Positions 1-26,132 of a DNA stretch of 64,000 nucleotides are shown here, piece by piece; position 1 is the stretch's first letter, and every line of letters starts with the position of its first letter. A program made the position numbers and the translations under genes. Under the pieces are notes generated by a model, which saw nothing but the letters and a program-made list of their open reading frames with translations, had not been told where the DNA came from and ran no database searches. This DNA comes from Giardia intestinalis (Eukaryota): NCBI GenBank assembly GCA_000002435.2, contig CM018793.1; one strand, written 5' to 3'.

Positions 1-501
1 GTCAAACAACAACTTGGGGTCTATGTAGTTGGTTATGAGACAATCGTCGTTTAGATAAACATAAAATTCTGACAACCCAGGTATACGGTGCAGGAAGCTT
101 TCGATGGCGAGCGAATTTCTCGAAATGTGGTCTGAGGGGGGAATGATGGTTTTGTGATAAACATATTCGATGGGCACCTTCCACTCTGAGGACTTCAACC
201 AGGAAATTCTCTCGCCGTTAGTGACAATGAAGACTCGTCTTATGTAAGGCATGTACCGTTCTACACCCCGCAGGGAATAGTAGAGTTCATCCATATTCCT
301 GAAACGGTGAATGCCCTCCGCATTCAGGGTGTCCAGTTTTTGGATCGGTGCGTGATGGCCTGCAGATCCATTTACCCATGTGTACACGAGATCAATGTTG
401 CTGCATCTGGGAAGATTGTCCCCAATTGTAATTTCATGGAATGAATGCCTGCTTCCTACGGCCACAGAAAGAATTCCGAAGAACACCCAAGCAGGGCACA
501 T
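1..501 (-). CDS. Stealth-family (GNPTAB-like) hexose-1-phosphotransferase, N-terminal 167 aa; the gene continues past the left edge
   Basis: The minus-strand frame is open from the ATG at 501..499 (preceded by an in-frame stop at 502-504) to position 1 with no stop. It is absent from the ORF track because it is incomplete. The translation starts MCPAWVFFGILSVAVG, a hydrophobic signal- or anchor-like N-terminus. It then contains IDLVYTWVNGS, matching the Stealth CR1 signature DVVYTWVNGSD. It also contains FRNMDELYYSLRGVERYMPYIRRVFIVTNGERISWL, matching the CR2 signature ELRYSLRS...IFIVTNGQxPxWL. Confidence 0.7.
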   Translation of the reverse strand, partial: MCPAWVFFGILSVAVGSRHSFHEITIGDNLPRCSNIDLVYTWVNGSAGHHAPIQKLDTLNAEGIHRFRNMDELYYSLRGVERYMPYIRRVFIVTNGERISWLKSSEWKVPIEYVYHKTIIPPSDHISRNSLAIESFLHRIPGLSEFYVYLNDDCLITNYIDPKLLFD

Positions 502-645
502 TTATTTAGTGCTCAAGTAAGCCGTAAACTCTTTCGTCTTTAATAGCTATCTACGGACAGCAGTGCAAAGTCCTTACGAAATTATTTACTAGCCAGGAGT
601 TTCCCTGCATGTACCCTGAGCAGGGAACGCCCCAAAGAAAATAAA

Positions 646-1395
646 ATGACAGCCCTCATAATCTTCTGTGGGTCCTTCAATCCAGTAACAAAAGCCCATA
701 TATCTATTATAGACAAAGCAATAGATTTTATCAACAATCTCACCTGCGACGATGGAACTTTGCTAGAAGCAGGGACCTACCGGGTCCTGATTTCACCGGT
801 TCACGACAGCTACCCTTGGAAGAAGCTTGCTCCCGCCAAGAACCGCATCCGGATGTTGGAGCTTGCCATTGAAGATAGCAGGTATCAAGACCTCATCGAG
901 ATCAATACCTACGAGGCTTTAATCCAGCAGAGCTTTACGCCCACATATGATGTCTTGTGCCATCTGAAGGAGGGATATCCGGACAAGAACATGTACTTTC
1001 TGTGTGGAGCTGACTTAGTGGAGTCTATGACCAATACAGCGGTATGGCCGGCGTCCAGCATAGAGAAGATCTTTCACATCTGCAAGCTTCTTGTAGCGCC
1101 GCGGAACCTCGGAACAGGGTCAATAGAGACCTGTGAGCTTTTCAGAAAGATCCTCGAGCACCCTTTGTTACACCATGCAAAGGAGAATGGGCAGCTATTC
1201 TTCCTACCAGACGTTTCTCTGGATTGCAGCAGCTCCGATGTAAGAGCATATTGTGCTGACAGCTCATCGACATTCAGCGGCTTTGGATTGCCTGACGAAA
1301 CAGACGTTGCCATGAAGAAGCTCGCACGATACGTGCCTTTCAGTATCATGGCCTACATAAAGAAGCACCATCTGTATGAAGCCCACTACAGCTAA
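646..1395 (+). CDS. NMNAT: nicotinamide/nicotinate mononucleotide adenylyltransferase (NMNAT)
   Basis: ATG at 646 is preceded by the A-rich stretch aaagaaaataaa. The protein carries GSFNPVTKAH (nucleotidyltransferase GxFxPxT/HxxH motif), ISPVHDSY, LCGADLVES, SSSDVRAY (SxT/SxxR-like) and a C-terminal YIKKHHLY. These are collinear with human NMNAT1 motifs. Confidence 0.85.
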   Translation: MTALIIFCGSFNPVTKAHISIIDKAIDFINNLTCDDGTLLEAGTYRVLISPVHDSYPWKKLAPAKNRIRMLELAIEDSRYQDLIEINTYEALIQQSFTPTYDVLCHLKEGYPDKNMYFLCGADLVESMTNTAVWPASSIEKIFHICKLLVAPRNLGTGSIETCELFRKILEHPLLHHAKENGQLFFLPDVSLDCSSSDVRAYCADSSSTFSGFGLPDETDVAMKKLARYVPFSIMAYIKKHHLYEAHYS

Positions 1396-1420: not shown

Positions 1421-3325
1421 CTAAGTGATAATATCAGAATTACTTAAACTATCCTGTGTATCAAAGAATGAGATGGAAGGATTGGATTCGCTGCTACTCT
1501 GAGTTCTGTCCACGGAGCGTCTGTGTGCAGAGACAGTCTTGACTGGTGGCTTAATGCAGAAGCTTATTAATGCAACCATAATTAGCGTAATATATATTGC
1601 GAAGGATATTGTCCCCATCATCATCATAAAGTCTTTGTCTGCTTGATGGAGATCGTGGGTCAGAATATAAGGAGAGACGACATCCAAATTCGGCATGTAC
1701 ATCTCGACGTACTTGAGAAGAACGTCGATTGCATTAACCTCTTGTCCATTCTGATCATAGTAGGGAGAAACAGAGTATGGACCGGATCCCTCTTCATAGC
1801 AAGCTCCTCCTTCCTGTAACAGAGCAAGAAAGCTCTCTGCGCTTTTTATGGTCGTTAGCAAGTCGTAGCACTTATTTGGGTTTAAGGTAAAAGGGTCCAA
1901 AGTTGTCTGGTAATTGATAAGGTGGGGGTCCTCCCAATCAAATAGACCTTCTGGAAGGGGATACATGGTTTCTGCAAGCCCATTCTTCACTGAAAAGAGA
2001 CACGCAATCAGGTTGGCTGTTAGCCCACGAATCGTCGACATGGTTTGCCAAGAGGGCTGGATTGCAATGCAATCATCTCTAGTGACGTTCCCAGGAAAAA
2101 AATCATACCTGGCCGTCCCAGAAGAAATCGTTGGAAAAGGGAGGCACGGAGTAGACCTTGTAGGATAGAACACCGCAGGAATTGCTCCATTGAGCCACAG
2201 GTTAAAGATAGAATCTTGATCTGTAGCGTTCTTGAACATGCTGTAGTAGTGCTTGTTATAGCCAATAAAGGCTGTCAGGTTTAGATCTGCCACCCACCCG
2301 GCAATCTTATTCGAGAGGATGGCCCCGTTCTCAGTCATGAACGTTTCCGTAGTAAGGTTGAATCTCTTTGCCAAACTCTCGGACGTAAAGTTGTAGGGTA
2401 AAGAGTAGTCTACGGAGGAAAACTGGTATCCTGTATACGTATTCCCTTCATGGCTATAAGTCATGGGCTTGAACTCATAGGTAACGTGCTGCATAAAGCG
2501 CAGATAACACCCACCCTCGACAATGTAGCACTGCTTGTCCTGACCGTCCATGCAATACGTGTTCTTAATTTGGTGGTAGTGACCGGCAATAATTATTATC
2601 GGAATGGTATAATTGATTTGGTTATAAAACGCACGCAGTTCTGTAACTATTTCGGATATCTCCAGGTCATATGTCGGTATATGACATGCGAGGACTAGCA
2701 GATCCGTTTGGTACTTATACTTCTCAAGGACACCGGTGATCTCCTGGGATGCAATGGCCTCCCTCGCAGGGATAGTGTAGACCCCGTCATATGGGCTGGT
2801 GTGGAATAGAAAGCCAAGCATGAGAACCCGGAGTCCAGTAGGAAGAACGAGATACTTATATCTTCCGCTTCCGACTGGCACGTTCGTATCGCGCATAAAA
2901 ACATTGGTGGTTATATATCTGTCACCGAAGAGGGCTTCAACCTTGCTGTGTATGTAATCTGTTGTCTCCTTATAGTATGATTCGTGGTTCCCTATCGTCT
3001 GTAGGTCGAAGCCAATATAGGATGCCGCCTCCAGTATCTTTTCTCCCTTAACTTTTGTGAGATCACTAAGCCCTGTTCCCTCTACCAGATCCCCCGCATC
3101 TACTGCTAACACAGATCGACCTTCGGACTCCAAAGCTTTTTGTCTTGTGCGCTCTATGTAAGAAAGAAGCGTGCCATAATCTCCATATTCTGGTAGATGT
3201 CTGTGGCCGTAAATCCAGCCGTGAGTGTCTGACACAGAGATAACGTCGAGGACAATTTTTGACTCTGTACTAAGATACGCTGATCTGATGAGTAATAACA
3301 GCGTGTGCAGTAGTGCCAATATCAT
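1421..3325 (-). CDS. 5'-nucleotidase / calcineurin-like metallophosphoesterase with N-terminal signal peptide and C-terminal transmembrane anchor
   Basis: The ORF-track start at 3385 is GTG (plus strand cac), so I moved the start to the first ATG at 3325, giving MILALLHTLLLLIRSAYLS, which is signal-peptide-like. Metallophosphatase motifs appear in order: SVSDTHG (DxH), AVDAGDLVEG (GDxxD/E), GNHE, and later AGHYH. The C-terminus has a hydrophobic span (FAIYITLIMVALISFCI) followed by a basic tail. Confidence 0.75.
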   Translation of the reverse strand: MILALLHTLLLLIRSAYLSTESKIVLDVISVSDTHGWIYGHRHLPEYGDYGTLLSYIERTRQKALESEGRSVLAVDAGDLVEGTGLSDLTKVKGEKILEAASYIGFDLQTIGNHESYYKETTDYIHSKVEALFGDRYITTNVFMRDTNVPVGSGRYKYLVLPTGLRVLMLGFLFHTSPYDGVYTIPAREAIASQEITGVLEKYKYQTDLLVLACHIPTYDLEISEIVTELRAFYNQINYTIPIIIIAGHYHQIKNTYCMDGQDKQCYIVEGGCYLRFMQHVTYEFKPMTYSHEGNTYTGYQFSSVDYSLPYNFTSESLAKRFNLTTETFMTENGAILSNKIAGWVADLNLTAFIGYNKHYYSMFKNATDQDSIFNLWLNGAIPAVFYPTRSTPCLPFPTISSGTARYDFFPGNVTRDDCIAIQPSWQTMSTIRGLTANLIACLFSVKNGLAETMYPLPEGLFDWEDPHLINYQTTLDPFTLNPNKCYDLLTTIKSAESFLALLQEGGACYEEGSGPYSVSPYYDQNGQEVNAIDVLLKYVEMYMPNLDVVSPYILTHDLHQADKDFMMMMGTISFAIYITLIMVALISFCIKPPVKTVSAHRRSVDRTQSSSESNPSISFFDTQDSLSNSDIIT

Positions 3326-3537
3326 TGTGGAAAGATTATTAATTTTAAGCAGTTCCTGGTCAATTTTCGGCAAGCCCGTACCCACAGGCTCCTGACAGTA
3401 ACTGGGTAACTATCCAGGCCAAAGAAGGGGCCATTCCTGTTATTTTAAAACTAAGATAATTATTTTGTAATGTTCAGTTACGTTCATCGTATGTTATTAT
3501 AAGTCTGCCTTAAGGACTAACTATCGCGCTGCTTGAG

Positions 3538-3756: not shown

Positions 3757-6666
3757 ATGTCGTCCCAGGATAGCTCTACAGATTGCTCCACAGACGAAGT
3801 TGATGGACCATATGTATCGACAATCCAGTTCGCCATTCAGGACATGGCGCACAGATATGCGCCGAAATTTACCAAAGTCCACACACTGGACACGCCCATC
3901 CCCACAAGTCAGATCCACGTTCACGAGCTTCTGAGTGGGAATATTTACATGCCAATACAGAACCTTCCTCCTCCTTGCGACGATCCCACCTCCCCATGGT
4001 TTTACATCAACGACTGCAGGCCGCAATATCCGAGCCAACCGTACTACTCTGTTGTTCCTCAGCTCATTATCAGAGGAACTCCATACTATCCCCTCAACAG
4101 CCTAACCCCCAACAAGCACCACGTCCGCAATTCTGCCAGAGATCTTGCCGAGTTCTACATGGACAAGGAGGATGTTTATGGAATTGCCACTGCACTTCTT
4201 GCCAAGCTTTACATGAGCGCGATTTCCCAGGCCCGCGCTGTCCGGGACACAATCCATGCAACGACAGCTGAGATTCGCGCATCCAAGATCCACCTTGCGG
4301 CTCCAACCGACTTTGGTTTTCCAGCGTCAGAATCGGACTGTTTTTCTTCTCAATGTCACGAGCTAACAAAGCAGTTGCAAACTAGGTTCGTCGGTCTTAA
4401 GCCATACGCTGATTTGTCAATTGCTCAGGGCATCAAGGATCCTCTGTACCTACTCGACTGGGACGAATATAACGAGTTCACGGTGGGAGGCGGGATTTTT
4501 GACAGCTACCTTCTTAATGATTATAAAGCCATAGACTTCTCCACAGCATGTGGCCTCCTTAGTGCGGTGTACAACGATATGTTTGACCCTCCCATGGAGA
4601 TCCCGCACATATGCGAAAATTCTACTGGGGTCTTCTACAGGCAATCAAACGGGTTTTCCATTGACTGTCTTGCAACCCTTCCGCACGCAGAATATATTAT
4701 TGTACGACCCATTGGAGATCATGGTGGTGAGTCACTCTCCAATCCACTCCTTATTAAGCCTACAGGAAGGTGGTGCACAACATACGAGTTGCTTATGGCG
4801 TTCGCTGAGTCCTTAATGTTGAGGGATTCTGGCTTCCAGGACGATTTCACGCACAGGGCTAAGCAAAAGTTCGAATCTGTTAAGGAAAAATTTGAGCAGA
4901 GAAGCGTAGGTGACTCCTCCGGGCGATGCACAGTTTGCGGGAACATCGACTTTGACAGTTATGCTGAGCACGTGGCCTCTACACAGCATTTGAAAAACTA
5001 CCGCAAAGAGCTCAACAAACTATTCAGGCCGACACTCTTGGAGACGGAAGCAGAAAAGGGGCTGATCAAGCTGGACGACTCAAATGGACATTTCCTGGCT
5101 CACAGATCTCCCACTTGTTTAGAGTACATTAAGCATGTCAGCAAACACATGGAGCTGAAGAATACAGCGCTTGCCCAACTGTCCTATCTCGCTAACTGCA
5201 TTGCAACACGTGAGAACGTAGATTACACCCTTGCATGTGCTGCAGTAACACGCTCCTGTTATTCGATGGGACTTCCACTCATGCTCGATGCCGGCGACAA
5301 ACCCGTGCGTGCCTCAAGCCCGACTCTGAAGGAAAACAGATCTGTTCGAGCATGGTTGGCAGATGTGCGGCGCGCTCGAGCAGATGAGTTCAATGAGGTC
5401 GATGCCAGAAACAGCAATGCAGAGTCTGAGGAGAGGTGCGCCATAGAAGCACAGATCCTTTATGCACTAGCCGCAATGTTCGAGCAAGTGGGCTGCGAGC
5501 CTCTTTCCCTTCTGAATGCAGACTTTCCTAACATATTGGCGAACGAAAACAGACCCAACAGGCGCCACGTAATAGAGATTTTCATCTCTGGAGATGACGT
5601 GCGCAGTGCATACAGCTCAGCACATCCCTCGCAGCGTATGGGGTTCTGTAACTTTGTTTCTATCTTCGCTCCGCATCTTTGTGAAGTAAGCTCAAGCCAA
5701 AGCAGTTCTGGTCTCAGTACAATCGTCTCAAAAGGCCAAGATAGACTATACTTATCCCAGAGCGATATAACAGCTTTGGTCTCGGAACTCAAGGACTATG
5801 AAGTGGGGAATTACGCACCTGGTGGCGTTATGTCCCGGATAGCCAGATTCACACGTTTGGCCCTGGAAGCCGATCCTCTCTTTACCACAGAGCTGGTTAC
5901 TAGGCAAGATACAGCGGTGTCACAAGCAGAAGATTCCACCAAGGATGGTTCCAGTGCTACAAGTACACCATTTGATCCTCCGGAGATAACACTGCCTAAT
6001 ATGCGGAGAAGTATATCCGTAGGAGGAGATGAATTACAGCAGGACTTAAGCTTCGACAGATTTACCGAAGATCTCAATGGAGATACGTCAGCTCTATCTA
6101 CTGACCTGCAAGATTATCCCATTGATATTTATCAAAGTCTCCTCACGGAAGTAGATAGATATCTTGAGCCAGACGACAGTGAGCCCTTGCAGCTCAGCAA
6201 TCTTCAGTCAGTCTCATTTGGAGGATTCAACGAAGCGTACAGTGAAGAGTGCTCCTATCGAGATGACTTGATATTTTCCAACAGCTTTGATACAGGATCA
6301 GGCATAGCGAGAGATTGTTACAGTATGCAAATGTTACAGGCTGACATAAATAGGCGTGATTATATAGACAAGGCTCTGGCCGGAGACTTTGCCTCCCAGG
6401 TCTCTGCTATCTACTCTGCCGTCATTCCATCACACATAGGCCCCAGGTCATACCTTCATGCGTGCAGCGACCTCCATACACAAGTGCTGGATTCATTAAC
6501 AGCCTATAACGGGGTTTCCTCGGTGGATACGGCGGACGCCGTGGCTATAGCACTCAATGCAACGCGGATTGTGCGCCAGGATGTATATGACATTGCATCA
6601 ACACGGTCTGTGACATATTTACCGGGAAGCAGAACAGTCCTGCGAAAAACAGCCTTCGGAAATTAA
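3757..6666 (+). CDS. hypothetical protein, 969 aa, with one C2H2 (U1/matrin-like) zinc-finger-like motif
   Basis: The start is ATG and the ORF is long and uninterrupted. CTVCGNIDFDSYAEHVASTQH (Cx2Cx10Hx5H) lies at about 4927-4989. I recognise no other domain. Confidence 0.7.
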   Translation: MSSQDSSTDCSTDEVDGPYVSTIQFAIQDMAHRYAPKFTKVHTLDTPIPTSQIHVHELLSGNIYMPIQNLPPPCDDPTSPWFYINDCRPQYPSQPYYSVVPQLIIRGTPYYPLNSLTPNKHHVRNSARDLAEFYMDKEDVYGIATALLAKLYMSAISQARAVRDTIHATTAEIRASKIHLAAPTDFGFPASESDCFSSQCHELTKQLQTRFVGLKPYADLSIAQGIKDPLYLLDWDEYNEFTVGGGIFDSYLLNDYKAIDFSTACGLLSAVYNDMFDPPMEIPHICENSTGVFYRQSNGFSIDCLATLPHAEYIIVRPIGDHGGESLSNPLLIKPTGRWCTTYELLMAFAESLMLRDSGFQDDFTHRAKQKFESVKEKFEQRSVGDSSGRCTVCGNIDFDSYAEHVASTQHLKNYRKELNKLFRPTLLETEAEKGLIKLDDSNGHFLAHRSPTCLEYIKHVSKHMELKNTALAQLSYLANCIATRENVDYTLACAAVTRSCYSMGLPLMLDAGDKPVRASSPTLKENRSVRAWLADVRRARADEFNEVDARNSNAESEERCAIEAQILYALAAMFEQVGCEPLSLLNADFPNILANENRPNRRHVIEIFISGDDVRSAYSSAHPSQRMGFCNFVSIFAPHLCEVSSSQSSSGLSTIVSKGQDRLYLSQSDITALVSELKDYEVGNYAPGGVMSRIARFTRLALEADPLFTTELVTRQDTAVSQAEDSTKDGSSATSTPFDPPEITLPNMRRSISVGGDELQQDLSFDRFTEDLNGDTSALSTDLQDYPIDIYQSLLTEVDRYLEPDDSEPLQLSNLQSVSFGGFNEAYSEECSYRDDLIFSNSFDTGSGIARDCYSMQMLQADINRRDYIDKALAGDFASQVSAIYSAVIPSHIGPRSYLHACSDLHTQVLDSLTAYNGVSSVDTADAVAIALNATRIVRQDVYDIASTRSVTYLPGSRTVLRKTAFGN

Positions 6667-6679
6667 GAGCAAGGTGACC

Positions 6680-7543
6680 TTACAGGCATCGACAGCATCC
6701 CTTCTTTGGACTTGGGGTTTTGCCCTTCTTGGACGCCTCTTCGTCCGAGTCTTCTGTACTATGCTCACTGTCTACCAACTTTTTCTCTTCTTTTTCCTCG
6801 CTACTGGGGGTACTCTCCTCTTCATCAGGGTTTCCTTTATTAGCGACGTCCTGATTGCCGGTGTCTCGTCCATTGGCATCCTCAACGTCTTTGAGAGCTT
6901 TCTGTTTTTCAGTCTCCTTCTTCACACAGTCGTTGCTCGTATCTAGAAGGGGGCGTTGCACAGGCTGCTCCTCGAAAACGAGACACACATCTTCAGAGGC
7001 AACAGATGGCACGCGAGAGACGTACCCTGGCGACAGCGTACAATCTCGTATCCCAATAACAAATTCCTCGGTCAGTTCACCGAGCCTCTCATTCAGCTCT
7101 TTCTTAGTAATGGCGTCTGAGTCGTGCTGCTCCTTGAGCCTCTTCACCCTGTTCTCAAACGATTTGTCTGGGTGAAGCATTAGAAGGATGAAGCAGGCAT
7201 CGTAGTAGTACAGCTTTAGCGCGATCTCTACTGGGTACTTGTTCGAAACGTCGGGTATCTTGTACTCACGCGCAGCAAGTATCTCCACAGACGCCAGCTT
7301 ATGTGCATAGATTGCGCGAATCAAGCCACTGCAGCCGGTCTCGGTTGTCGAGCCACCCAATAGATCAAGATTCTCCTCCAGATATTCGGTATTACCAGCT
7401 GTGGCAGCATCGAACCAGCCGTCCATCACTTCCTGGTCCTCCATAATTACGTTTGTAACGACTTTTTTGTACCCCTGTCTTGGATTCATGTGTCGTGCAT
7501 AATTATTTAAACAAGTGGAAACAGTACGGAAACACATGAACAT
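6680..7543 (-). CDS. ankyrin-repeat protein with acidic, Lys-rich tail and C-terminal CaaX-like box (CRCL)
   Basis: The start at 7543 is ATG. An alternative start is MNPRQG at 7489. Ankyrin-like repeats include GWFDAATAGNTEYLEENLDLL and TGCSGLIRAIYAHKLASVEILAA. The protein ends KKGKTPSPKKGCCRCL immediately before the stop. Confidence 0.6.
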   Translation of the reverse strand: MFMCFRTVSTCLNNYARHMNPRQGYKKVVTNVIMEDQEVMDGWFDAATAGNTEYLEENLDLLGGSTTETGCSGLIRAIYAHKLASVEILAAREYKIPDVSNKYPVEIALKLYYYDACFILLMLHPDKSFENRVKRLKEQHDSDAITKKELNERLGELTEEFVIGIRDCTLSPGYVSRVPSVASEDVCLVFEEQPVQRPLLDTSNDCVKKETEKQKALKDVEDANGRDTGNQDVANKGNPDEEESTPSSEEKEEKKLVDSEHSTEDSDEEASKKGKTPSPKKGCCRCL

Positions 7544-7552: not shown

Positions 7553-9346
7553 ATGCTCACTCTGCAGCTCTTAGCGTTTCTGGAAATTTCAATGGGACGT
7601 GAGAAAGACCACATTTATTCATATGTATCTCCACAGAATTGCCCTGGACTAGATGTCACGGAGTTCACTAGTACATACGCAGACGGATTCTGTAAGATTT
7701 ACCTTCCAAAGGAGGCTTTTATGGGCGGTGATGTGCGTGTCACAATACGGTCTTTGGATTCTCCCAGCTCCGCGGACACTACTGAGCAGGTCCTTCATAA
7801 TGAGCTCACTCCAGCTATTTTCCCCGTGTACTCGTACAGTTCTTACACTTTTTCCCTTGCCGATGATAGCTGTCCAGCAAGTGCAGAGCAAACTTTGTTC
7901 TGCGTGCCTCCGGCGGAGCAAACTTCAGTGCTGTCTACGGAAGCGATCGCGATACTGTACGTGCTCTATGACCTAGAAATTAAGAGGGTTCTCCGTACAG
8001 ATTTACCAGTTCGTTCCACAAGAGGGTCGGGGCACTGTCTCGGTTTTTTCGATGGAATTTTCCCCGAGCACAACGTGCTATCTACGCTGCTTTCTCATGC
8101 CCTGTCTTCACAGTTTGGACGGCTTAACCTAGCGCTTATTCGGTTTCTTCAGCCAGGACCTGCCACTACTGGCTACTGGGCAAGAGCCCTGGGAGACATA
8201 GATGACTTTGATGTCGTCAGCAAGCTTTTCTCATCAACCTACACAGCGACCCTCCGAAAGCGGGAGGACGAGGATGGCGGCTTTCGCCTGGTTCTGGTTG
8301 TTGCGGACGAAGACGGGGACATCGTTGTTAGCATGGAATCCCAACCCTACCGGCCGCCTCATCTGGCTCCTCTAACCCGAGACGACGTACGCTACGAGAG
8401 TACTGGGACCCTAGGTACTGGAATGAACGTGTACTTGCGACGGAAGCCAGGCGTTGTCGTCCTCTTCAACTACTTCTCCCAGCCCGGTAGAGGATCTAGC
8501 CGCGGCCCATCGTGTTTGGATTACTTAGACATTCTCGGCCAACACTGCACATCCTACTCGTCCGGATATAACCTCTGTCCGGTCCAGTCAAAGCTTTCTA
8601 AGAACGATGTCCTAAACGCTATCGCCGAACAGCCAATTTATCTATCCACCGCCGAGGGGGAGGGCGATTGGACGAAACTATTTACTTTAGAAACTGGTGA
8701 CATGCTCAATGTTTGCGGATACTGGATGATAGACCAGCCCACTGTTGCCATTACGGAAGAGGGAGACGGGGCGATATATTTTTCAAACAAGAGCAGGCCA
8801 TCCCCGCTGACCTTCTTCCTCCTAGTCACAGCAGGGTGCTTTACTATATGCATGTGTGTAATCATGATGCTTCTATGCATAACGTCCTTTTGTGCTTGCC
8901 TGCGCTTGTATGCAGTGGATTTGCGTTGGTCTCCTCACAGAACCCCGGTGCCGGAGAGTCCGGGAGAGCTGAAGAAGCAGGTAGAACTGCAGAGAATTGG
9001 AGCTGAGACAGATACGTCGGTGGCGTGTGTATCTCCACTGCCCTCAAAAGCTATGTCTCCGCTCTTGCTACCACGGGGCGACGCGGCCAAAAAGCTTGCG
9101 TCTAAACAGAATCAATGTACTGGAGTCGCACTCGCTATTGCTGGCGCTACAACAAGTCTTGCAACAGGGTCTCCCCTCAGTGACCGAGAGCACAGCAGCG
9201 TCACGAGAGATACCATATATAGCAGCATAAGCGCAGGAAGCATGGCGAGCTCAATGGTGTGTGCACCGCCTACCGATTCCACGGCGGTACACTCAGAAGA
9301 CAAGCAAGATATGGACACTCCTGCAGTGTCAGGTTCGCTGGCATAA
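7553..9346 (+). CDS. type I membrane protein (signal peptide, one transmembrane helix, Ser/Ala-rich cytoplasmic tail), hypothetical
   Basis: ATG at 7553 sits in the A-rich context gaaaataca. The N-terminus MLTLQLLAFLEISMG is signal-like. There is a single strongly hydrophobic span, LTFFLLVTAGCFTICMCVIMMLLCITSFCACL. I recognise no conserved domain. Confidence 0.65.
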   Translation: MLTLQLLAFLEISMGREKDHIYSYVSPQNCPGLDVTEFTSTYADGFCKIYLPKEAFMGGDVRVTIRSLDSPSSADTTEQVLHNELTPAIFPVYSYSSYTFSLADDSCPASAEQTLFCVPPAEQTSVLSTEAIAILYVLYDLEIKRVLRTDLPVRSTRGSGHCLGFFDGIFPEHNVLSTLLSHALSSQFGRLNLALIRFLQPGPATTGYWARALGDIDDFDVVSKLFSSTYTATLRKREDEDGGFRLVLVVADEDGDIVVSMESQPYRPPHLAPLTRDDVRYESTGTLGTGMNVYLRRKPGVVVLFNYFSQPGRGSSRGPSCLDYLDILGQHCTSYSSGYNLCPVQSKLSKNDVLNAIAEQPIYLSTAEGEGDWTKLFTLETGDMLNVCGYWMIDQPTVAITEEGDGAIYFSNKSRPSPLTFFLLVTAGCFTICMCVIMMLLCITSFCACLRLYAVDLRWSPHRTPVPESPGELKKQVELQRIGAETDTSVACVSPLPSKAMSPLLLPRGDAAKKLASKQNQCTGVALAIAGATTSLATGSPLSDREHSSVTRDTIYSSISAGSMASSMVCAPPTDSTAVHSEDKQDMDTPAVSGSLA

Positions 9347-10279
9347 TCAATTTGAATCAAGGTAGTTCCTTATCTCTTCCTCTGGAACAACATGTACGCG
9401 CCCAAAGTGAACACCTGGCTCCATTGATCTGGCACCCCAGACGCTGATCATGCGAAATTCGGCGCTATCGTCTGCTGATGGCCCATGCTTATATAATTGT
9501 AAGGCACTTATAACTGTTGGAAAGATGTCACACTCGTGGACATACTTTGTGGGGTCTATTTGGTCCACCACTGCTTGCCTGTCTTTAGAAGGAAGCAGTG
9601 GGGGCATGTCGTATCCATATAATACCATGGCCTTCGGATGGAGCTGCTGCAATATTTCCATCGGTGTGCCATCAATCTGTTCATCGTCCGTCTCATCTTC
9701 GTGGTCATTGTTGATCTTTGCCCGTTCAAGTTCTCCTGAAGCAAGCTGCACCTGTTCTTGTTCAACTGGATACGAGCGCAGGTCGAAGGCTGGGAGTGAA
9801 CTACAGATCTTCAGATATGGTATGCCGTCTTGTTCCGTTGCTGAAGAAGTAGTCGCGGAACTAGATTCGGGAGCAGCAGAGACTGATAGCGATGCTCCTT
9901 TCAATGCACCAAGCAGGTCTGCAGATGCATTACCTACATCTTCCAGAAGAGATTGCTGCGGAGCTATGTGGGTTTGGGTTTGGGTTTGGCTGTTGACTTT
10001 TTCTTTCCAACAGTATGGAATGTTCACCGTCAAGGCGAGACCGGTGTCAACACAATGGACGCTATTGCATATGAATGTATAGGTCACCCTGTGTATGGTT
10101 ACCGTGGAGCCTGGAGAGATATGCTGTAGAAGCAGGACAAGGGGCTTGCGGCAATACTGACAGAGAAGATCGGGGGGATTGAACTGTAGAGGGAAACACG
10201 CACAGCCGCCAAGCTGACTATACATAATTGAAAGCTCGGAGGAGGCCAAGCGCCCGTTTAACACTGCAATTTTGTACAT
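9347..10279 (-). CDS. PDCD2/TSR4-like protein
   Basis: The start is ATG. The N-terminal block SQLGGCACFPLQFNPPDLLCQYCRKPLVLLLQHISP...HRVTYTFICNSVHC parallels the PDCD2 N-domain pattern SKVGGRPAWL...CxxCGxPLSFLLQVYAP...FHRxIFLFCCxxxxC. The match to the PDCD2_C region is weak. Confidence 0.5.
   Translation of the reverse strand: MYKIAVLNGRLASSELSIMYSQLGGCACFPLQFNPPDLLCQYCRKPLVLLLQHISPGSTVTIHRVTYTFICNSVHCVDTGLALTVNIPYCWKEKVNSQTQTQTHIAPQQSLLEDVGNASADLLGALKGASLSVSAAPESSSATTSSATEQDGIPYLKICSSLPAFDLRSYPVEQEQVQLASGELERAKINNDHEDETDDEQIDGTPMEILQQLHPKAMVLYGYDMPPLLPSKDRQAVVDQIDPTKYVHECDIFPTVISALQLYKHGPSADDSAEFRMISVWGARSMEPGVHFGRVHVVPEEEIRNYLDSN
9969..9991. repeat. (TGGGTT)n hexamer microsatellite, about 3.5 units, inside the PDCD2-like CDS
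   Basis: The sequence gtgggtttgggtttgggtttggc encodes QTQTQT in the minus-strand protein. Confidence 0.8.
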
Positions 10280-10319: not shown

Positions 10320-13300
10320 ATGGCTACATCCTTGGTTTTGGAGAAGTACAGATTCGGTGAATGCATCAGTAATGGTTTCAACGGAAAGGTTCACAAAGTT
10401 TTTGATAAGACCGACGACACTCTTTACGCCTGTCGAAGCGTTAGCTATGAAAACATCTCAAGTAAGCTTATCAAACAGGCCCGAAAGGAATGGCCTCTCC
10501 TCAAGAAGGTGGAGCATGCTTCTGTGGCCCAGATCATCGAGGTGATAGATGACGAGGCCGCGAAGACCGTTCATTACATAATGGAATATTATCCTCATGG
10601 AGATTTAGGTGCATACATACGGAAGCGGGCGCAGGAGCAGGACCATGTCCCTGAACAACTGGTCTGGCTCATCATGACTCAACTCATAGAGGGGCTTGCA
10701 TACCTTCATAACCCCCACAAAAGAAACGCTCAAGGGATTGGTGCGATCGTTCACAGGCATCTGTCCCCCTCTAATGTGCTTATTTCTGAAGACAACGAAG
10801 TTCGCATATCGGATTTTAAGGTCATTCGCGACGAAAGTGACTCTTCGTATATCGCTGATGAAAACTATATGAAGCGGCAGTCATACAGGTCCCCGGAGAC
10901 CCTAGCCAATGAACCTGAAAATGAAACAGGCGACATCTGGTCCCTAGGGTGCATCATCTACGAGCTCTGTACGTTTCAGGCCCCGTTCGTGGCGACAGAC
11001 GTTTCATCAATGCTTATGCTTCAGCAGATGGACCACACGGACGATATTAGTAAGCTGCCTGCTATCTACAGCGACGACTTGCGCAGCGTGCTGGGATCTA
11101 TGCTGGTTGCGAACAAGAAGCGACGTAATTCAGTGGTCGGCCTCAAAGCCAACAAGACCATTCGGGAATACAATTTGGAAGTCCACAAGCTTTACGAGCG
11201 ACGGTACGTGCGCGAACGGGAGCGAGAAAGGACACAACGGGGCCTGGCCCCGCCAGAGATAATTGACTATCAGCGGACGCCACTAATGCTTGCCGCGGAG
11301 GAAGGTGATATAAAGCAAGTTAAGCGGCGCCTTAAGAAAGATGTAGGCATGCAAGATTTGGTTGGGAAGACTGCGCTGATGTACGCTGCACAAGCCGGTA
11401 AGGATGGAGTGTGTCGCATCCTTTTGGATATGGAGGCTAGAATGGTCTGCAAGAAAGGCAAGACGGCGCTTATCTACGCAACTGAAGCCGGTGCCAATGC
11501 ATGCATAGAGCTTTTGGTGAAGTATGAAGCAAAGATGCAGTCTAATGATCAACGCACCGCGCTTATGTTCGCCATACTCAAGAAGAATGCTCATGCTGTT
11601 CAAGTACTTGCTCCCTATGAGCACTCCATCTGCAATTCGGATAATGTAACGCCGACAATGCTGGCATGCTGCGAAGGAAACCCTTTTGCAGTAAATGTTC
11701 TGAGTGCCTACGAGGCCGGAATGCAGGACATAAAGGGGTGGACAGCTCTACACTATGCAGCTGCTCAGAACTCCGTCCTGTGCATGAACTATCTGCTGGA
11801 CAAAGAGATCAAGAAGCTCACCCTCTCTGGACTGACCCCATTGATGATCGCAGCGCACTCCGGTCATGCAAAGGCCATTAAGCGCCTGCTTCCTTACAAT
11901 AAGCGGGTCTGGGATCACGAAAACCGAACAGCACTTATGTATGCTGTAAGGCAAGGCCATCTTGAGGCAACGATGCTTCTTTTAGACGAGGAGGCGAACT
12001 TCCAGGACAAGCAGCACAAGACCGCGCTGATGATGGCCGTGGAGCGTAACCATAAGCACATAGTGGAATATATGGTTAAGTCCTCCAAAGTGGAGTGGGG
12101 CCTCCGGAATACCCAAGGCTATACGGCACTACACATGGCCGTGTTATACAACTATTCAGAGTGTGCAGCTCTGCTTCTGCCCAGAGAGGCCCGAATACCA
12201 ATACTCCTAGATCCACATGGCCCCGAGTATGGAGAAACGGCCTTTGAATTAGCGTTTAATAGAGAAAACTACCAGATGGCCATGCTGTTGGCTCCGATTG
12301 AGGGCCCACGAGCCACAAACGAAATCGATCAGGAACGTCGCACTGACCTAATCAGAGCAGCAGAAAGAGGCGACGCCATGTCAGTCATCTGTTTTGCTAG
12401 CCAAGCTGGGTGCATAGACATCTACAACAAAACTGCATTGATGTATGCCGCAGAAAGCAACAACCAGACCATCGTGAAAGCACTTATTCCATATGAGGCG
12501 AATATCGAGGCGAATGGTCTCAAGGCCCTGACATATGCTCTCTTGAATAACAACATAGAAGTTGCAGAGCTGCTTGCGCCCAGTGAGAGCATAGATATCT
12601 CCAAGTACTCACGCCTTGATAACCGTGAGACAGAGCTGATGAAGGCAGTGGCAGAGGGTGACATACTCCGGACATGGTGCTTGCGCTTCCAAGCTGGGCT
12701 CCACAATACGGACGGCACCACTGCCCTAATGATTGCTGCTACTACCGGCAATCTATATGCGACGCGTCTTTTGGTGGCCCATGAGGCTGGGATGCGGCGC
12801 AATGACCATCAGCGGGCGTACACACTCGCAATGCTGGCAGGTAACCATGGAATAGCAAAGATTTTGTCAGACTATGAAGACACAGACCTCAATGTGCAAA
12901 ACAACACTCCACTCATGTTGGCCGCTGTTGAGAACCGGATTTTGGACATCAAAGCCAATATTAGATACCTCGGGTCACGAAACGCTGATAATAAAACTGC
13001 GCTGATGTTCGCTGCAGAGCGGGGACACCTGGATGCCGTGAAGCTCCTCTTGGACGAGGCCAAGACAAAGATGATAACAATGGACTGGCGCAATGGATAC
13101 ACAGCTCTGATGTTAGCAGCTAAATATAACAAGGTGTCTGTCTGCGAGTGCCTGCTGAGCAGAGAACGTGGGATGAGGAATAAAGCAGACTGGACGGCGC
13201 TAATGATTGCTGCTCAGGCAAACTCTATCGATGCTGCCCGTGTGCTTTTTACAGAAGAGGCAGGTATGCTTCTATTGTCTGGTGAGACGACCACTTGCAA

Positions 13301-13931
13301 AACTGCGATGATGATAGCTGCCGAGTACGGGCGACACGAGGTGGTGCAACTACTACTGCCCTATGAGGGCGGTAAGCAGACCAGCGAAGGGCGCTCAGCA
13401 CTCATGTTTGCTGCCGCGAATGGTCATGTGGAGGCCGTGAATATTCTGGCCAAGGTGGAGAGCCGCCTTCAGCTATCCTCCAGATCTTCGGCACCGGGAT
13501 CAACAGCTATCCATATTGCCGCTGAGTTTGGGCAACTGGACTGCGTGAAGGCTCTGATACCTCACTGCCTTGCCATTAAGCGCAACGATGGCTTTACGTC
13601 GCTGATGCTTGCAGCCGGTCGGAACCATCTGGAGATTGTCAAGCTCTTGGCAGAGCGTCAGATAAGACTCCAAGCTAACAATGGACTGTCGGCCCTGATG
13701 ATTGCGGCAAGCAGAGGATACTCGGACATTGTAAAGATCCTAATGGACGACGAGGCTGGCCTGACCAATGCAGATGGATACACAGCGCTGATGCTGGCTG
13801 CACAAGCAGGTCACGCAGATGTCTGCAGTTTACTTCGTCCACGGGAAGAAGCTATTACTCATCGCAGCGGAGCATCCCTGTTGGATATGGCGCAAGGAGA
13901 AGCAAGGGACTTGTTCATCAGTACTATCTAA
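10320..13931 (+). CDS. Nek-family protein kinase domain (predicted pseudokinase) fused to more than 20 ankyrin repeats
   Basis: The ORF-track start at 10272 is TTG, so I moved the start to ATG at 10320 (MATSLVLEKYRF). The kinase subdomains are degenerate. The glycine-rich loop is weak (ISNGFNGKV). The VAIK lysine appears replaced (LYACRSV). The catalytic loop reads HRHLSPSN instead of HRDLKPxN. DFK replaces DFG. SPE and DIWSLGCIIYEL are retained. Downstream there are about 24 repeats of the TALMxAAxxGHxxxVxxLL ankyrin type. Confidence 0.85.
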   Translation: MATSLVLEKYRFGECISNGFNGKVHKVFDKTDDTLYACRSVSYENISSKLIKQARKEWPLLKKVEHASVAQIIEVIDDEAAKTVHYIMEYYPHGDLGAYIRKRAQEQDHVPEQLVWLIMTQLIEGLAYLHNPHKRNAQGIGAIVHRHLSPSNVLISEDNEVRISDFKVIRDESDSSYIADENYMKRQSYRSPETLANEPENETGDIWSLGCIIYELCTFQAPFVATDVSSMLMLQQMDHTDDISKLPAIYSDDLRSVLGSMLVANKKRRNSVVGLKANKTIREYNLEVHKLYERRYVRERERERTQRGLAPPEIIDYQRTPLMLAAEEGDIKQVKRRLKKDVGMQDLVGKTALMYAAQAGKDGVCRILLDMEARMVCKKGKTALIYATEAGANACIELLVKYEAKMQSNDQRTALMFAILKKNAHAVQVLAPYEHSICNSDNVTPTMLACCEGNPFAVNVLSAYEAGMQDIKGWTALHYAAAQNSVLCMNYLLDKEIKKLTLSGLTPLMIAAHSGHAKAIKRLLPYNKRVWDHENRTALMYAVRQGHLEATMLLLDEEANFQDKQHKTALMMAVERNHKHIVEYMVKSSKVEWGLRNTQGYTALHMAVLYNYSECAALLLPREARIPILLDPHGPEYGETAFELAFNRENYQMAMLLAPIEGPRATNEIDQERRTDLIRAAERGDAMSVICFASQAGCIDIYNKTALMYAAESNNQTIVKALIPYEANIEANGLKALTYALLNNNIEVAELLAPSESIDISKYSRLDNRETELMKAVAEGDILRTWCLRFQAGLHNTDGTTALMIAATTGNLYATRLLVAHEAGMRRNDHQRAYTLAMLAGNHGIAKILSDYEDTDLNVQNNTPLMLAAVENRILDIKANIRYLGSRNADNKTALMFAAERGHLDAVKLLLDEAKTKMITMDWRNGYTALMLAAKYNKVSVCECLLSRERGMRNKADWTALMIAAQANSIDAARVLFTEEAGMLLLSGETTTCKTAMMIAAEYGRHEVVQLLLPYEGGKQTSEGRSALMFAAANGHVEAVNILAKVESRLQLSSRSSAPGSTAIHIAAEFGQLDCVKALIPHCLAIKRNDGFTSLMLAAGRNHLEIVKLLAERQIRLQANNGLSALMIAASRGYSDIVKILMDDEAGLTNADGYTALMLAAQAGHADVCSLLRPREEAITHRSGASLLDMAQGEARDLFISTI

Positions 13932-13954: not shown

Positions 13955-15766
13955 TCATAGGTCTTGAATGGTGTTTATGTTTGCATGCGTAGAGTCAAAC
14001 CCAAACAGCTCAAAGGTGTCAACATCGTTTTCTGCTAGTAGGCCTTGGACACTTTTAGAGATGGCCCGCATGAGGACGTTTCTTTTCTGTTCATTCTCCA
14101 CAGTTACAACACACTGAGCAGTCGCAGACATGAATGACAAAAACCGGTCCACATGCTGAATCGACTGTGTATACCCGCAGTGGTGTTTGTTTATGGAGCT
14201 TTTGCTATGCTGATTAGGATGGGCCCCTGTTCCTGGTGTTTGAACAAGTGTATCTGGCCTAGACAATTTAAAGTTATTATCGTGCGCTGTGTCTGGGGGC
14301 CCTGTCCTGTTAGGCCGGGCTTCTTCGACTTGCTGCATCTTTTTACTAGTGGTACGGGAATTGCGTTTTGTTTCTGTCGATTTTGGTCGCTTTCGGGGGA
14401 GATTGACCCCTATTAGTTCTGAGGTGTGCAAGTCCCTATCTCTACTTCTATTTGCCCCGTCTCCAGACGTCCGCTTATTATATTCTCCTGCAGACTCTGG
14501 TCTCTTGGGGCGGTTATTAGTCATGCGGAATACTGCCGCTTCCATTGCGTTGCCGTCGGGGACAATCGTCTCTAGGGCTACTTGAGGAACGATAGGTTCA
14601 TGGGCAGGATGCCTCTGTGGGTATCGGCTGTACTCGTATGCAGTTTCTGTTCCAGAATTGTTCCGCGTGCTGGCCAACGATTCCCGGGGTTGGGGCGTGA
14701 CATTTTCTGAAGCCCTCTCCATTGTATCTCGTAAAGAGTACATGTAAATTCGCACATTGTCGAAGGTATCAAAACGCTTGATCTGCCCAGACGTGTGATG
14801 TATCGTCACAGGCTTGAGGCTCAGCGAATTGATGCGGTCGCAGATAGCGGGAAAGTCATAGGCAGAAGGGACTACGTTAAAGGAGAAGTGATAGTATGGA
14901 TTGCGAAGAGCCAGGCTACTGCTGTATAGCTCAGAAAGCGCGTGTTCTTTTCCAACCTCCCCTTGCTTTGACAGCTGATAGGATTCCAGCTGAAGCTTAC
15001 GTTTTCGATAGAGCTCTACAAGTTCCTTTCCAGTTACTTCATTTATGTATGCATTATTGGCGCTGTCATAGATGTCAAGAGCAGCAGCAAGGACCTGCTT
15101 CCGTACTGACTGATGCTTTGTTGAGTAGATGTATGACTCTGTTATGGCAAGCTTGTTTCTGCTTGTGCTACTGGCCCATGCGTTTCCAAATATGCATGAT
15201 GACGCAGAAATACCGTCCTGAGAAGGGATTAGTGCGTATGTGGCCTTCTGCACTGGAGCCGGAATCTCTCGCTCAATGTATATCGGCCTATACTCTGCTG
15301 CAAGTCCAGGCCAGAGCACGGCTAGTAGACCAGTGGAGATCCGTGTGTCTGTTTTGAAAACCTCAACAAACTGGGTCTGCACATAGTGCGTCCTACGCTG
15401 CAGATCAACGTTACAGGGGGATCTGTCCAGTGTAACCTTGGTCTGCTCAGGCCCCTTAACGAGAAATGAGAAGCTCCAGCGCCCCTGATTATGCTTACAA
15501 CGGAAGAAAAGATTCTTCTTCGTTGCAGCGGAATGCAAGAAGCGGACAAGCTGTGAAGGAATCCAGATCGAAAAGCAAGCGAGTCCGAGAAGCATGCTAG
15601 CGATTTCGCCTACTGCGGAGGCTTCGTCATGCCCTCTAGTAATGCCCTCCACGGGGTCTTTGTCTGGTGCTAAGACGGCTGCCAAGGCACTAATAGCGTC
15701 GTGTATTTGCCTCCGCTGAGTTCTATCTAGAAGATCGGTCATCGAAGTGACCAGGTTTGTTGTCAT
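13955..15766 (-). CDS. hypothetical protein (about 603 aa), basic Ser/Arg-rich central region
   Basis: The ORF-track start at 15817 is TTG (plus strand caa), so I moved it to the first ATG at 15766 (MTTNLVTSMTDLL). It is a long uninterrupted ORF and I recognise no domain. Confidence 0.55.
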   Translation of the reverse strand: MTTNLVTSMTDLLDRTQRRQIHDAISALAAVLAPDKDPVEGITRGHDEASAVGEIASMLLGLACFSIWIPSQLVRFLHSAATKKNLFFRCKHNQGRWSFSFLVKGPEQTKVTLDRSPCNVDLQRRTHYVQTQFVEVFKTDTRISTGLLAVLWPGLAAEYRPIYIEREIPAPVQKATYALIPSQDGISASSCIFGNAWASSTSRNKLAITESYIYSTKHQSVRKQVLAAALDIYDSANNAYINEVTGKELVELYRKRKLQLESYQLSKQGEVGKEHALSELYSSSLALRNPYYHFSFNVVPSAYDFPAICDRINSLSLKPVTIHHTSGQIKRFDTFDNVRIYMYSLRDTMERASENVTPQPRESLASTRNNSGTETAYEYSRYPQRHPAHEPIVPQVALETIVPDGNAMEAAVFRMTNNRPKRPESAGEYNKRTSGDGANRSRDRDLHTSELIGVNLPRKRPKSTETKRNSRTTSKKMQQVEEARPNRTGPPDTAHDNNFKLSRPDTLVQTPGTGAHPNQHSKSSINKHHCGYTQSIQHVDRFLSFMSATAQCVVTVENEQKRNVLMRAISKSVQGLLAENDVDTFELFGFDSTHANINTIQDL

Positions 15767-25307: not shown

Positions 25308-26132
25308 ATGGCGACACCCTTAGACAGGCCATTAACTAGAGGTGGTGCCTTCGGAGGCTGCTGCGGTAGTAGCGGGGACGCTCAAGGAGACGACGCAGAA
25401 ATTTCTTTGGCAAAGACCTACAACACCTCCCAGGGAGGGGGCTGGAGGCCTCCCGAGGACAAAAAGCCCAGGAAACAGAAGTCTGTCGTGGATTTACTAG
25501 AGGCGGTCACGGTCAAATACAAAACGGCACAGGACGCACCAATTCTTCCTCCGCGGGCCGGCAATGACAACAAGCCCACCCTGGTATTGGATATGGACGA
25601 GACCCTGATTGCAGTGAAGTTTGATCTCTATTTGCCTGGCTCCGATTACATAGTTCCACTGAGGCTTTGCCATCTGACCGAAACGGGGACGGGAATGACA
25701 GAATTATACACTATAGCATGGGTTAGAAAGCGGCCCTATCTGGAAGACTTCTTGGCATCCGTAGCCAAGGACTGGGAGGTAATAATAATGACCGCAGGGA
25801 TTGAAGATTATGCAAAGCCGATCATTGCAGAGTTCGATCGCAACAAGATCGTGTCTTACTCTCTCTACAGGGACTCTTGCTCATGTGATAAGTCCGACGG
25901 AATCATATACAAGGACCTCAGCATCCTCGGCAGGGACGTAAACCGTACAGTAATAGTGGACAATACCCCGACATGCTATAAGAAGCACCCTGAGAACGCT
26001 ATTCCAATAAGCACGTGGGAGAGCTCCAGCAAGGACCGAGCTCTCAGGTCCCTCATCCCGATCCTTCAGGAGCTGTCGAGAGCCCCAAATATAGTTAAAG
26101 CTCTAAAGCGGATGCGGCTAAATGAGTTCTAG
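25308..26132 (+). CDS. NIF/FCP1-homology small CTD-like phosphatase (HAD superfamily)
   Basis: The ORF-track start at 25284 is GTG, so I moved it to ATG at 25308 in the context tattataaaATG. TLVLDMDETLI carries the DxDxT catalytic motif. Collinear blocks KRPYLEDFL, YKDLSILGRDVNRTVIVDNTP and ENAIPISTWE match the human SCP1/CTDSP1 core. Confidence 0.85.
   Translation: MATPLDRPLTRGGAFGGCCGSSGDAQGDDAEISLAKTYNTSQGGGWRPPEDKKPRKQKSVVDLLEAVTVKYKTAQDAPILPPRAGNDNKPTLVLDMDETLIAVKFDLYLPGSDYIVPLRLCHLTETGTGMTELYTIAWVRKRPYLEDFLASVAKDWEVIIMTAGIEDYAKPIIAEFDRNKIVSYSLYRDSCSCDKSDGIIYKDLSILGRDVNRTVIVDNTPTCYKKHPENAIPISTWESSSKDRALRSLIPILQELSRAPNIVKALKRMRLNEF

Follow-up and report, generated by a model that had tools for sequence, protein, structure and literature searches.

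A compact Stealth-family gene, 'SacB', at the left edge of a Giardia intestinalis contig window, and its probable role as a single-domain hexose-1-phosphate transferase

Introduction

The Stealth family (in Pfam, PF17101, PF11380, PF17102 and PF17103) was defined by Sperisen et al. in 2005, and Giardia was listed there among the protists with a Stealth gene (PMC1285062). The subject of this report is such a gene, annotated 'SacB', the first part of which lies at the left edge of a stretch of 64,000 nucleotides of Giardia intestinalis DNA (GenBank assembly GCA_000002435.2, contig CM018793.1; the whole stretch is called the window below). Described relatives include the animal N-acetylglucosamine (GlcNAc)-1-phosphotransferases (GNPTAB), CpsY of Mycobacterium tuberculosis and SacB/CsaB of Neisseria meningitidis. 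In human GNPTAB, Asp408 and Asn1151 (D153 and N327 in the G. intestinalis protein) hold the Mg2+ ion that bridges both phosphates, Asp407 (D152) binds the ribose and a second Mg2+, Asn406, Glu389 and Ser385 (N151, E134 and S130) contact the sugar, Arg986 (R264) is essential and neutralises the transferred phosphate, and His956 (H238) acts as general base towards the acceptor hydroxyl (PMC9388126, PMC10668966). CpsY has an essential Arg in block CR3 and a CIND/CLND motif in block CR4 (PMC10668966). For the Stealth proteins of Dictyostelium and Leishmania a role in phosphoglycosylation was proposed (PMC1285062).

The G. intestinalis protein (363 amino acids (aa), hereafter Giardia SacB) shares the Stealth catalytic fold and all catalytic residues with animal GNPTAB (PDB entries 7s05, 7s6n/7sj2 and 9bgf; Drosophila 7dxi), but lacks the Notch/LNR and DMAP modules, the large spacer insertions, the site-1-protease activation segment and the C-terminal membrane span of these proteins; PF00066, carried by the GNPTAB-type homologues, is likewise absent. 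Human GNPTAB is a protein of about 1256 aa. Like CpsY (8j2n) and the N. meningitidis enzyme, Giardia SacB consists of one compact catalytic domain, similar in size, and the blocks CR1 to CR4 follow each other in the same order. Its AlphaFold2 model superimposes on CpsY with a TM-score of 0.82 (normalised to CpsY) and a root-mean-square deviation of 3.3 Å, whereas the identity in the structural alignment is 22-23%. It differs from the bacterial Stealth enzymes in being eukaryotic, in its signal-like N-terminus and in its position outside any capsule cluster. From these comparisons we infer that Giardia SacB is probably a minimal single-domain Stealth enzyme, which would act in the secretory pathway as a metal-dependent, one-step hexose-1-phosphate transferase.

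Gene identity and features

A preliminary description of the window, made from its letters alone, had reported a Stealth gene fragment on the minus strand with a hydrophobic N-terminus and recognisable CR1 and CR2 blocks. All of this was found at the places described. Positions 1-501 (minus strand) hold a stop-free frame that yields 167 residues on translation and continues past the left edge, beyond which the other 196 codons of the gene are located. The translation, MCPAWVFFGILSVAVGSRHSF...IDLVYTWVNGS...ELYYSLRGVERYMPYIRRVFIVTNGERISWL...YVYLNDDCLITNYIDPKLLFD, contains both quoted blocks, the second of which (ELYYSLRG...RVFIVTNGERISWL) corresponds to aa 72-102 of the fragment. The frame is absent from the list of open reading frames (ORFs) of the window because the program that made the list leaves out ORFs that run off an end, as had been supposed. 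The features of the gene within the window are as follows.

1..501, minus strand: Stealth gene annotated 'SacB', codons 1-167 of 363 (from the translation and the full gene on identical contigs)
499..501, minus strand: start codon ATG, with an in-frame TAA immediately upstream at 502-504 (read from the sequence)
451..501, minus strand: hydrophobic N-terminus, aa 1-17, MCPAWVFFGILSVAVGS, with the look of a signal peptide or short signal anchor (from hydropathy)
364..396, minus strand: Stealth CR1 motif IDLVYTWVNGS, aa 36-46 (Pfam PF17101, 25.3 bits, cutoff 27.2)
4..306, minus strand: Stealth CR2, aa 66-166, including R66, E72, S130, E134 and N151-D152-D153 (Pfam PF11380)
43..51, minus strand: codons AAC GAC GAT for N151-D152-D153, equivalent to human Asn406-Asp407-Asp408 (read from the sequence)

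When the fragment was compared with Pfam, Stealth_CR2 matched with 99.9 bits (E=1.2e-28, cutoff 39.4) over model positions 1-100 of 108, and Stealth_CR1 matched slightly under its cutoff with E=1.2e-5; the CR2 segment also aligns to CR2 of the Drosophila, zebrafish and human GNPT proteins. The Stealth match of the fragment is thus far above chance level. A scan of the fragment against NCBIfam matched no family.

Over its first 4 kb, the window matches two Giardia contigs of the Logan collection (L003 and L007) with 100% identity, in line with the diplomonad context suspected beforehand, and GCA_000498715.1 (AHGT01000004.1), which encodes ESU39272.1 under the name Giardia intestinalis/duodenalis DHA2_151026, with about 98.3%. 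The window belongs to G. intestinalis assemblage A. On L003 the full gene (8765-9856, minus strand) ends in a stop codon and has a product of 363 aa (protein P0009). Compared with XP_001706816.1 / UniProt A8BIC9, 'SacB [Giardia intestinalis WB]', this protein shows the single difference R314C, located outside the window part, and the 167 aa of the window are identical to the first 167 aa of the WB protein. An exact-sequence look-up placed P0009 in a 90% cluster with XP_001706816.1/A8BIC9 (WB), EFO61827.1 'SacB' (P15) and ESU39272.1 (DH); the assemblage B proteins named 'SacB', EES99050.1 (GS) and KWX14931.1, form a sister cluster. The G. muris orthologue A0A4Z1T011, found in the homologue search, is likewise named 'SacB'. 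Orthologues are therefore present in assemblages A, B and E (P15) and in G. muris. Because 'SacB' is annotated in the Giardia reference genomes, and because Sperisen et al. had Giardia in their list, the gene has to be counted as already known; the sequence finding is correct and not new. The name 'SacB' is a label given by similarity and is not to be taken as a function.

Completeness of the catalytic domain

CR3 and CR4 lie beyond the window and were studied on the full gene from the identical contigs. In the full-length protein, Pfam detects CR2 and the sub-threshold CR1 only. Most bona fide Stealth matches of the homologue search also escape the Pfam models for CR3 or CR4, and these models are therefore considered insensitive. 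The two blocks are recovered by sequence alignment, by profile comparison and in the structure model, so that the expectation of a full set of Stealth domains in the complete ORF was borne out by these three approaches and by a highly significant CR2, whereas Pfam gave no CR3 or CR4.

A MAFFT alignment was made of 107 sequences (the Giardia protein and 106 homologues). Regarding CR1, the residues D37, V39 and W42 occupy invariant or nearly invariant columns; R66, E72, S130 and E134 are conserved as well, and the triad of CR2 is found in 105 (N151), 105 (D152) and all 107 (D153) of the sequences. Regarding CR3, H238 (106/107) and R264 (107/107) stand in conserved columns, and in CR4 the motif C325-I-N-D is represented by C325 in 99 and N327 in 95 of the 107 sequences. 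His238, Arg264 and the CIND motif are invariant across all five Giardia orthologues. HMMER pairs 'LTLCINDILD' of Giardia with 'FNCINDNLD' of Drosophila, at a score below significance. A profile of the five Giardia sequences was compared by hhalign with a profile of nine Stealth proteins that are Pfam-positive for CR1 to CR4, which gave a probability of 100% and E=7e-43 over columns 26-354; the pairs formed in this alignment include 'YPxHxF..FRRSV' with 'HTP...S', 'R(S/T)xxSIS' with 'FRxxxD' and 'CIND' with 'CLND'.

The AlphaFold2 model, built on the alignment, has a predicted local distance difference test (pLDDT) value of 87.7 and a predicted template modelling (pTM) score of 0.88. Searched with Foldseek against the PDB, it yielded 13 top matches that are all GNPTAB (human, zebrafish, Drosophila) or M. 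tuberculosis CpsY (E 5e-19 to 6e-15); generic GT-A glycosyltransferases come next in the ranking at about 1e-5. By sequence, the closest solved relatives are Drosophila GNPT (7dxi, E=6e-24), zebrafish and human GNPTAB, and CpsY. Taken together, the alignment, the hhalign comparison and the structure model place Giardia SacB in the Stealth family, with complete though divergent CR3 and CR4 and with the catalytic fold. Every catalytic residue (E134, N151-D152-D153, H238, R264 and C325-I-N-D) is kept.

N-terminus

Residues 5-16 (AWVFFGILSVAV) are hydrophobic and contain the best 11-residue Kyte-Doolittle window (2.4). The best 19-residue window reaches 1.15; because of this value and the shortness of the stretch, the N-terminus resembles a signal peptide more closely than it does a membrane anchor of full length. 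All five Giardia orthologues carry such a short hydrophobic stretch at the N-terminus, and AlphaFold2 places a low-confidence helix at aa 3-14. Judged by hydropathy, Giardia SacB most likely enters the secretory pathway by way of this N-terminus, which fits with four further Cys, besides the Cys of CIND, that are conserved across all orthologues.

Selection, codon usage and gene order

Between assemblages A and B the proportions of nonsynonymous and synonymous differences are pN=0.119 and pS=0.672, corresponding to a nonsynonymous to synonymous rate ratio (dN/dS) of about 0.076. The ratio is alike in both parts of the gene (0.083 for codons 1-167, 0.071 for codons 168-363); that of the adjoining NMNAT-like gene is 0.035 for the same pair. 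The SacB gene is under strong purifying selection. Its per-codon log-likelihood under the codon usage of the window is -1.169, compared with -1.194 +/- 0.038 for 15 genes of the window, and its G+C content at third codon positions (GC3) of 0.60 is at the upper end of the native range of 0.47-0.60, still within it. Codon usage is native.

The gene order in G. intestinalis is a divergent NMNAT-like gene, the Stealth gene and a giant ORF of 2006 aa with weak similarity to E1-E2 (P-type) ATPases. The same layout is found in assemblage B (L013) and in G. muris (L014), where the giant ORF has no recorded Pfam match and was not compared. The Stealth proteins of G. intestinalis and G. muris are 50% identical. 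Since this synteny extends to assemblage B and G. muris, the gene dates back to the ancestor of Giardia and has been inherited vertically within the genus. The region between the two divergent genes is as follows.

502..645, no strand assigned: intergenic region of 144 bp between the divergent Stealth and NMNAT-type genes (pair conserved in L013 and L014)

An A/T-rich stretch, CTAAATAA, abuts the ATG of the Stealth gene, and the region presumably holds short promoters of both genes.

At the gene's opposite end, to the left of the window, a second ORF of 212-214 aa (L003:8131-8775, minus strand) overlaps the Stealth ORF (L003:8765-9856, minus strand), starting 11 nt before the Stealth stop in the +1 frame. 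The junction reads ctcccc-ATG-tca-gaT-AA, and the arrangement occurs in G. intestinalis assemblages A and B (L013:5082-5720). This ORF is collinear and homologous with the C-terminal extension (about 170 aa) of the one Stealth ORF of 527 aa in G. muris (L014:5001-6584), as seen in a BLASTP match of E=6e-13 and the conserved motif LPPLxxDRKLILxMDNIER, and purifying selection acts on it too (dN/dS about 0.16). The junction may have come about by fission of the gene in G. intestinalis or by fusion in G. muris, or the two frames may yield one frameshifted product.

Relatives and origin

An exhaustive phmmer search among 1.84 billion cluster representatives gave 5525 relatives at E<=1e-3. The G. 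muris protein scored 361 bits and was followed, after a gap, by generic Stealth domains of at most about 105 bits per domain. Among the relatives that can be aligned over their full length are proteins of actinobacteria and rhizobia. Matches of 110-164 bits, considered as possible diplomonad orthologues, were rejected as tandem multi-domain Stealth proteins with summed and inflated scores; they come from a Rikenellaceae bacterium, an alphaproteobacterium, the rumen fungi Anaeromyces and Piromyces, diplonemids and an oomycete. Many Stealth proteins, among them P0147, P0148, P0149, P0150, P0151 and P0155, contain two to four tandem Stealth catalytic domains, and proteins of this type occur in bacteria (Rikenellaceae, alphaproteobacterium) as well as in eukaryotes (Neocallimastigomycota, diplonemids). 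A search of bacterial and archaeal genomes with a single protein as query returned 87 pattern sites, none of which was confirmed by tblastn.

The phylogenetic placement that the preliminary description called for was obtained in part. In a neighbour-joining tree built with 200 bootstraps from 297 columns of 224 domains, the Giardia sequences are monophyletic in 200 of 200 replicates, and the best sister grouping is found in 60 of 200, so that the clade is firm and no sister is supported. Contigs were examined for two of the sister candidates that recurred, P0076 and P0182, and both adjoin eukaryote-type genes (a UBA domain, a split protein kinase). Two of the Stealth domains closest to those of Giardia stand on dense, ORFan-rich contigs: P0024 on the metagenome contigs L009 and L010, where its neighbours include a GT4 glycosyltransferase, an SNase-like gene and a zinc-finger protein, and P0076 on L008, near UBA and Nucleotid_trans genes. 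These contigs resemble a giant virus or compact eukaryote more than a bacterium.

A recent lateral acquisition of a bacterial gene by Giardia, as considered in the preliminary description, would agree with the patchy distribution of Stealth in bacteria and eukaryotes (PMC1285062), with the similar scores of bacterial and eukaryotic homologues against Giardia SacB, with a protein size equal to the bacterial single-domain form and with the lack of a nearer non-Giardia relative among the 1.84 billion cluster representatives. It is nevertheless unlikely, since the codon-usage fit and GC3 lie within the native range, purifying selection acts on the gene, the synteny with assemblage B and with G. 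muris at 50% protein identity makes the gene older than the Giardia radiation, no bacterial sister is supported in the tree, and the sister candidates examined stand beside eukaryote-type genes. An ancient transfer is possible, given the weak sister grouping in the tree (60/200).

Proposed function

If Giardia SacB works as its solved relatives do, it would bind a uridine diphosphate (UDP)-sugar, probably a UDP-N-acetylhexosamine (UDP-HexNAc). D153 and N327 would hold the Mg2+ that bridges both phosphates, R264 would neutralise the beta-phosphate, and H238 would deprotonate the acceptor hydroxyl, which would then attack the beta-phosphate; uridine monophosphate would leave, and the product would be a sugar-1-phosphate-O-acceptor. 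The N-glycan of Giardia is described in PMC2924369 as a very short GlcNAc2 without mannose, and the acceptor is for this reason not expected to be N-glycan mannose. Candidate acceptors are Ser/Thr of secreted or surface proteins, a GlcNAc of the GlcNAc2 N-glycan, and a glycan containing N-acetylgalactosamine (GalNAc) or GlcNAc.

The most economical reading would be an enzyme of protist-type phosphoglycosylation. In this the Giardia protein resembles the Stealth proteins of Dictyostelium and other protists, for which the classical animal mannose-6-phosphate pathway is not an obvious role and phosphoglycosylation was proposed on family grounds (PMC1285062); in Dictyostelium, GlcNAc-1-phosphate-Ser has been shown chemically, according to work cited in that paper, whereas no such product is known in Giardia. 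The putative role in phosphoglycan or cyst-wall glycan synthesis, already raised in the preliminary description, is possible. As a tentative proposal, SacB might install an undescribed phosphodiester-linked sugar, e.g., a HexNAc-1-phosphate carried by Ser/Thr of proteins at the surface or in the cyst wall, or by the GlcNAc2 N-glycan.

Several observations weigh against a working secretory hexose-1-phosphate transferase of this kind. The Pfam models for CR3 and CR4 gave no match to the full 363-aa protein at E<=1. The hydrophobic N-terminal stretch is short. At the positions equivalent to His959 and Gln992, both of them GlcNAc contacts in the human enzyme, Giardia has V/A/T/F and Ser, and the donor sugar can therefore not be read from the sequence. 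Literature searches found no phosphodiester-linked glycan or sugar-phosphate polymer for Giardia and no paper characterising the Giardia SacB protein, and the words 'SacB' and 'Stealth' are absent from the text supplements of one secretome paper and two encystation transcriptome (RNA-seq) papers.

A capsule-type polymerase, which would make a poly(hexose-1-phosphate) as does CsaB/SacB of N. meningitidis serogroup A, would fit the shared family membership, the common set of catalytic residues and the database name. This function is improbable for Giardia SacB: the name was transferred by similarity only, a trimmed alignment of the catalytic domain gives an identity of only about 25-31% to bacterial members, and the neighbours are the NMNAT-like gene, lineage-specific ORFs and the P-type-ATPase-like giant ORF, with no capsule or export cluster nearby. 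The cyst-wall polymer of Giardia is beta-1,3-GalNAc (PMC2924369), and no phosphate-linked Giardia polymer was found in the literature searches.

The lysosomal-targeting role also suggested beforehand would make the protein an analogue of GNPTAB, starting a tag like mannose-6-phosphate that sorts hydrolases to the lysosome-like peripheral vacuoles. The closest solved relatives in sequence and fold are indeed the animal GlcNAc-1-phosphotransferases, and the catalytic residues are held in common with GNPTAB; the bacterial Stealth enzymes, however, share these residues equally. The suggestion does not agree with the mannose-free GlcNAc2 N-glycan described above, nor with a protein of only 363 aa in which Pfam finds no Notch/LNR, DMAP or other GNPTAB substrate-recognition module. 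Not only His959 and Gln992 but also Asn1153 of the human enzyme, which helps to place the acceptor mannose, lacks a conserved equivalent (Ile329 in G. intestinalis, Val in G. muris), and a mannose acceptor is therefore not indicated. Moreover, sorting in Giardia is known to make use of a receptor of the Vps10 type (PMC8717582). An analogue of GNPTAB is thus very improbable. That the gene is a decaying or catalytically dead remnant, as might be read from the silence of Pfam CR3/CR4 at E<=1 and from a G. intestinalis frame shorter than that of G. muris, with the tail in a separate overlapping ORF, is scarcely credible in view of a dN/dS of 0.076 that is alike in both gene parts, the invariance of His238, Arg264 and CIND in the Giardia orthologues, and an hhalign match spanning CR1 to CR4 together with a confidently modelled fold, the Pfam models for CR3 and CR4 being insensitive.

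Other genes of the window

The divergent neighbour of the Stealth gene (646-1395, plus strand) encodes a cytidylyltransferase-like protein of 249 aa (PF01467, E=1.4e-11), which is probably the Giardia NMNAT and is found on many public contigs. It is adjoined by a 654-aa ORF (1421-3385, minus strand) whose sole similarity is to PF21953, the C-terminal domain of NAD nucleotidase (21.7 bits, cutoff 27); the proximity of the two hints at a gene pair of NAD metabolism.

A protein kinase of 1203 aa (10320-13931, plus strand; Pkinase, E=1e-39) carries a long ankyrin-repeat tail (Ank_2, 12 stretches), an architecture typical of the expanded NEK kinase family of Giardia. Further to the right, positions 25308-26132 (plus strand) encode a NIF/CTD-phosphatase-like protein of 274 aa (PF03031, E=1.1e-44). 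Two giant uninterrupted ORFs of 7671 codons (30010-53025, plus strand) and 3088 codons (15852-25118, minus strand) were used for the codon statistics. Of the other ORFs of the window that were scanned against Pfam, most gave no match, namely those at 3757-6666, 6680-7543, 7553-9346, 9347-10279, 13955-15766, 26544-27980, 28036-29322 and 53735-57523.

Implications

As a sequence finding the gene adds nothing to existing annotation; its interest lies in its function. Giardia has no mannose in its N-glycan, and yet strong selection maintains there an enzyme whose one characterised relative among eukaryotes phosphorylates N-glycan mannose. If the phosphoglycosylation reading is true, Giardia SacB would be a minimal eukaryotic Stealth enzyme that acts outside any mannose-6-phosphate pathway. 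Knowing which donor and acceptor it uses would bring to light a new Giardia glycan, and also the work of the minimal eukaryotic Stealth enzyme before or outside the mannose-6-phosphate pathway.

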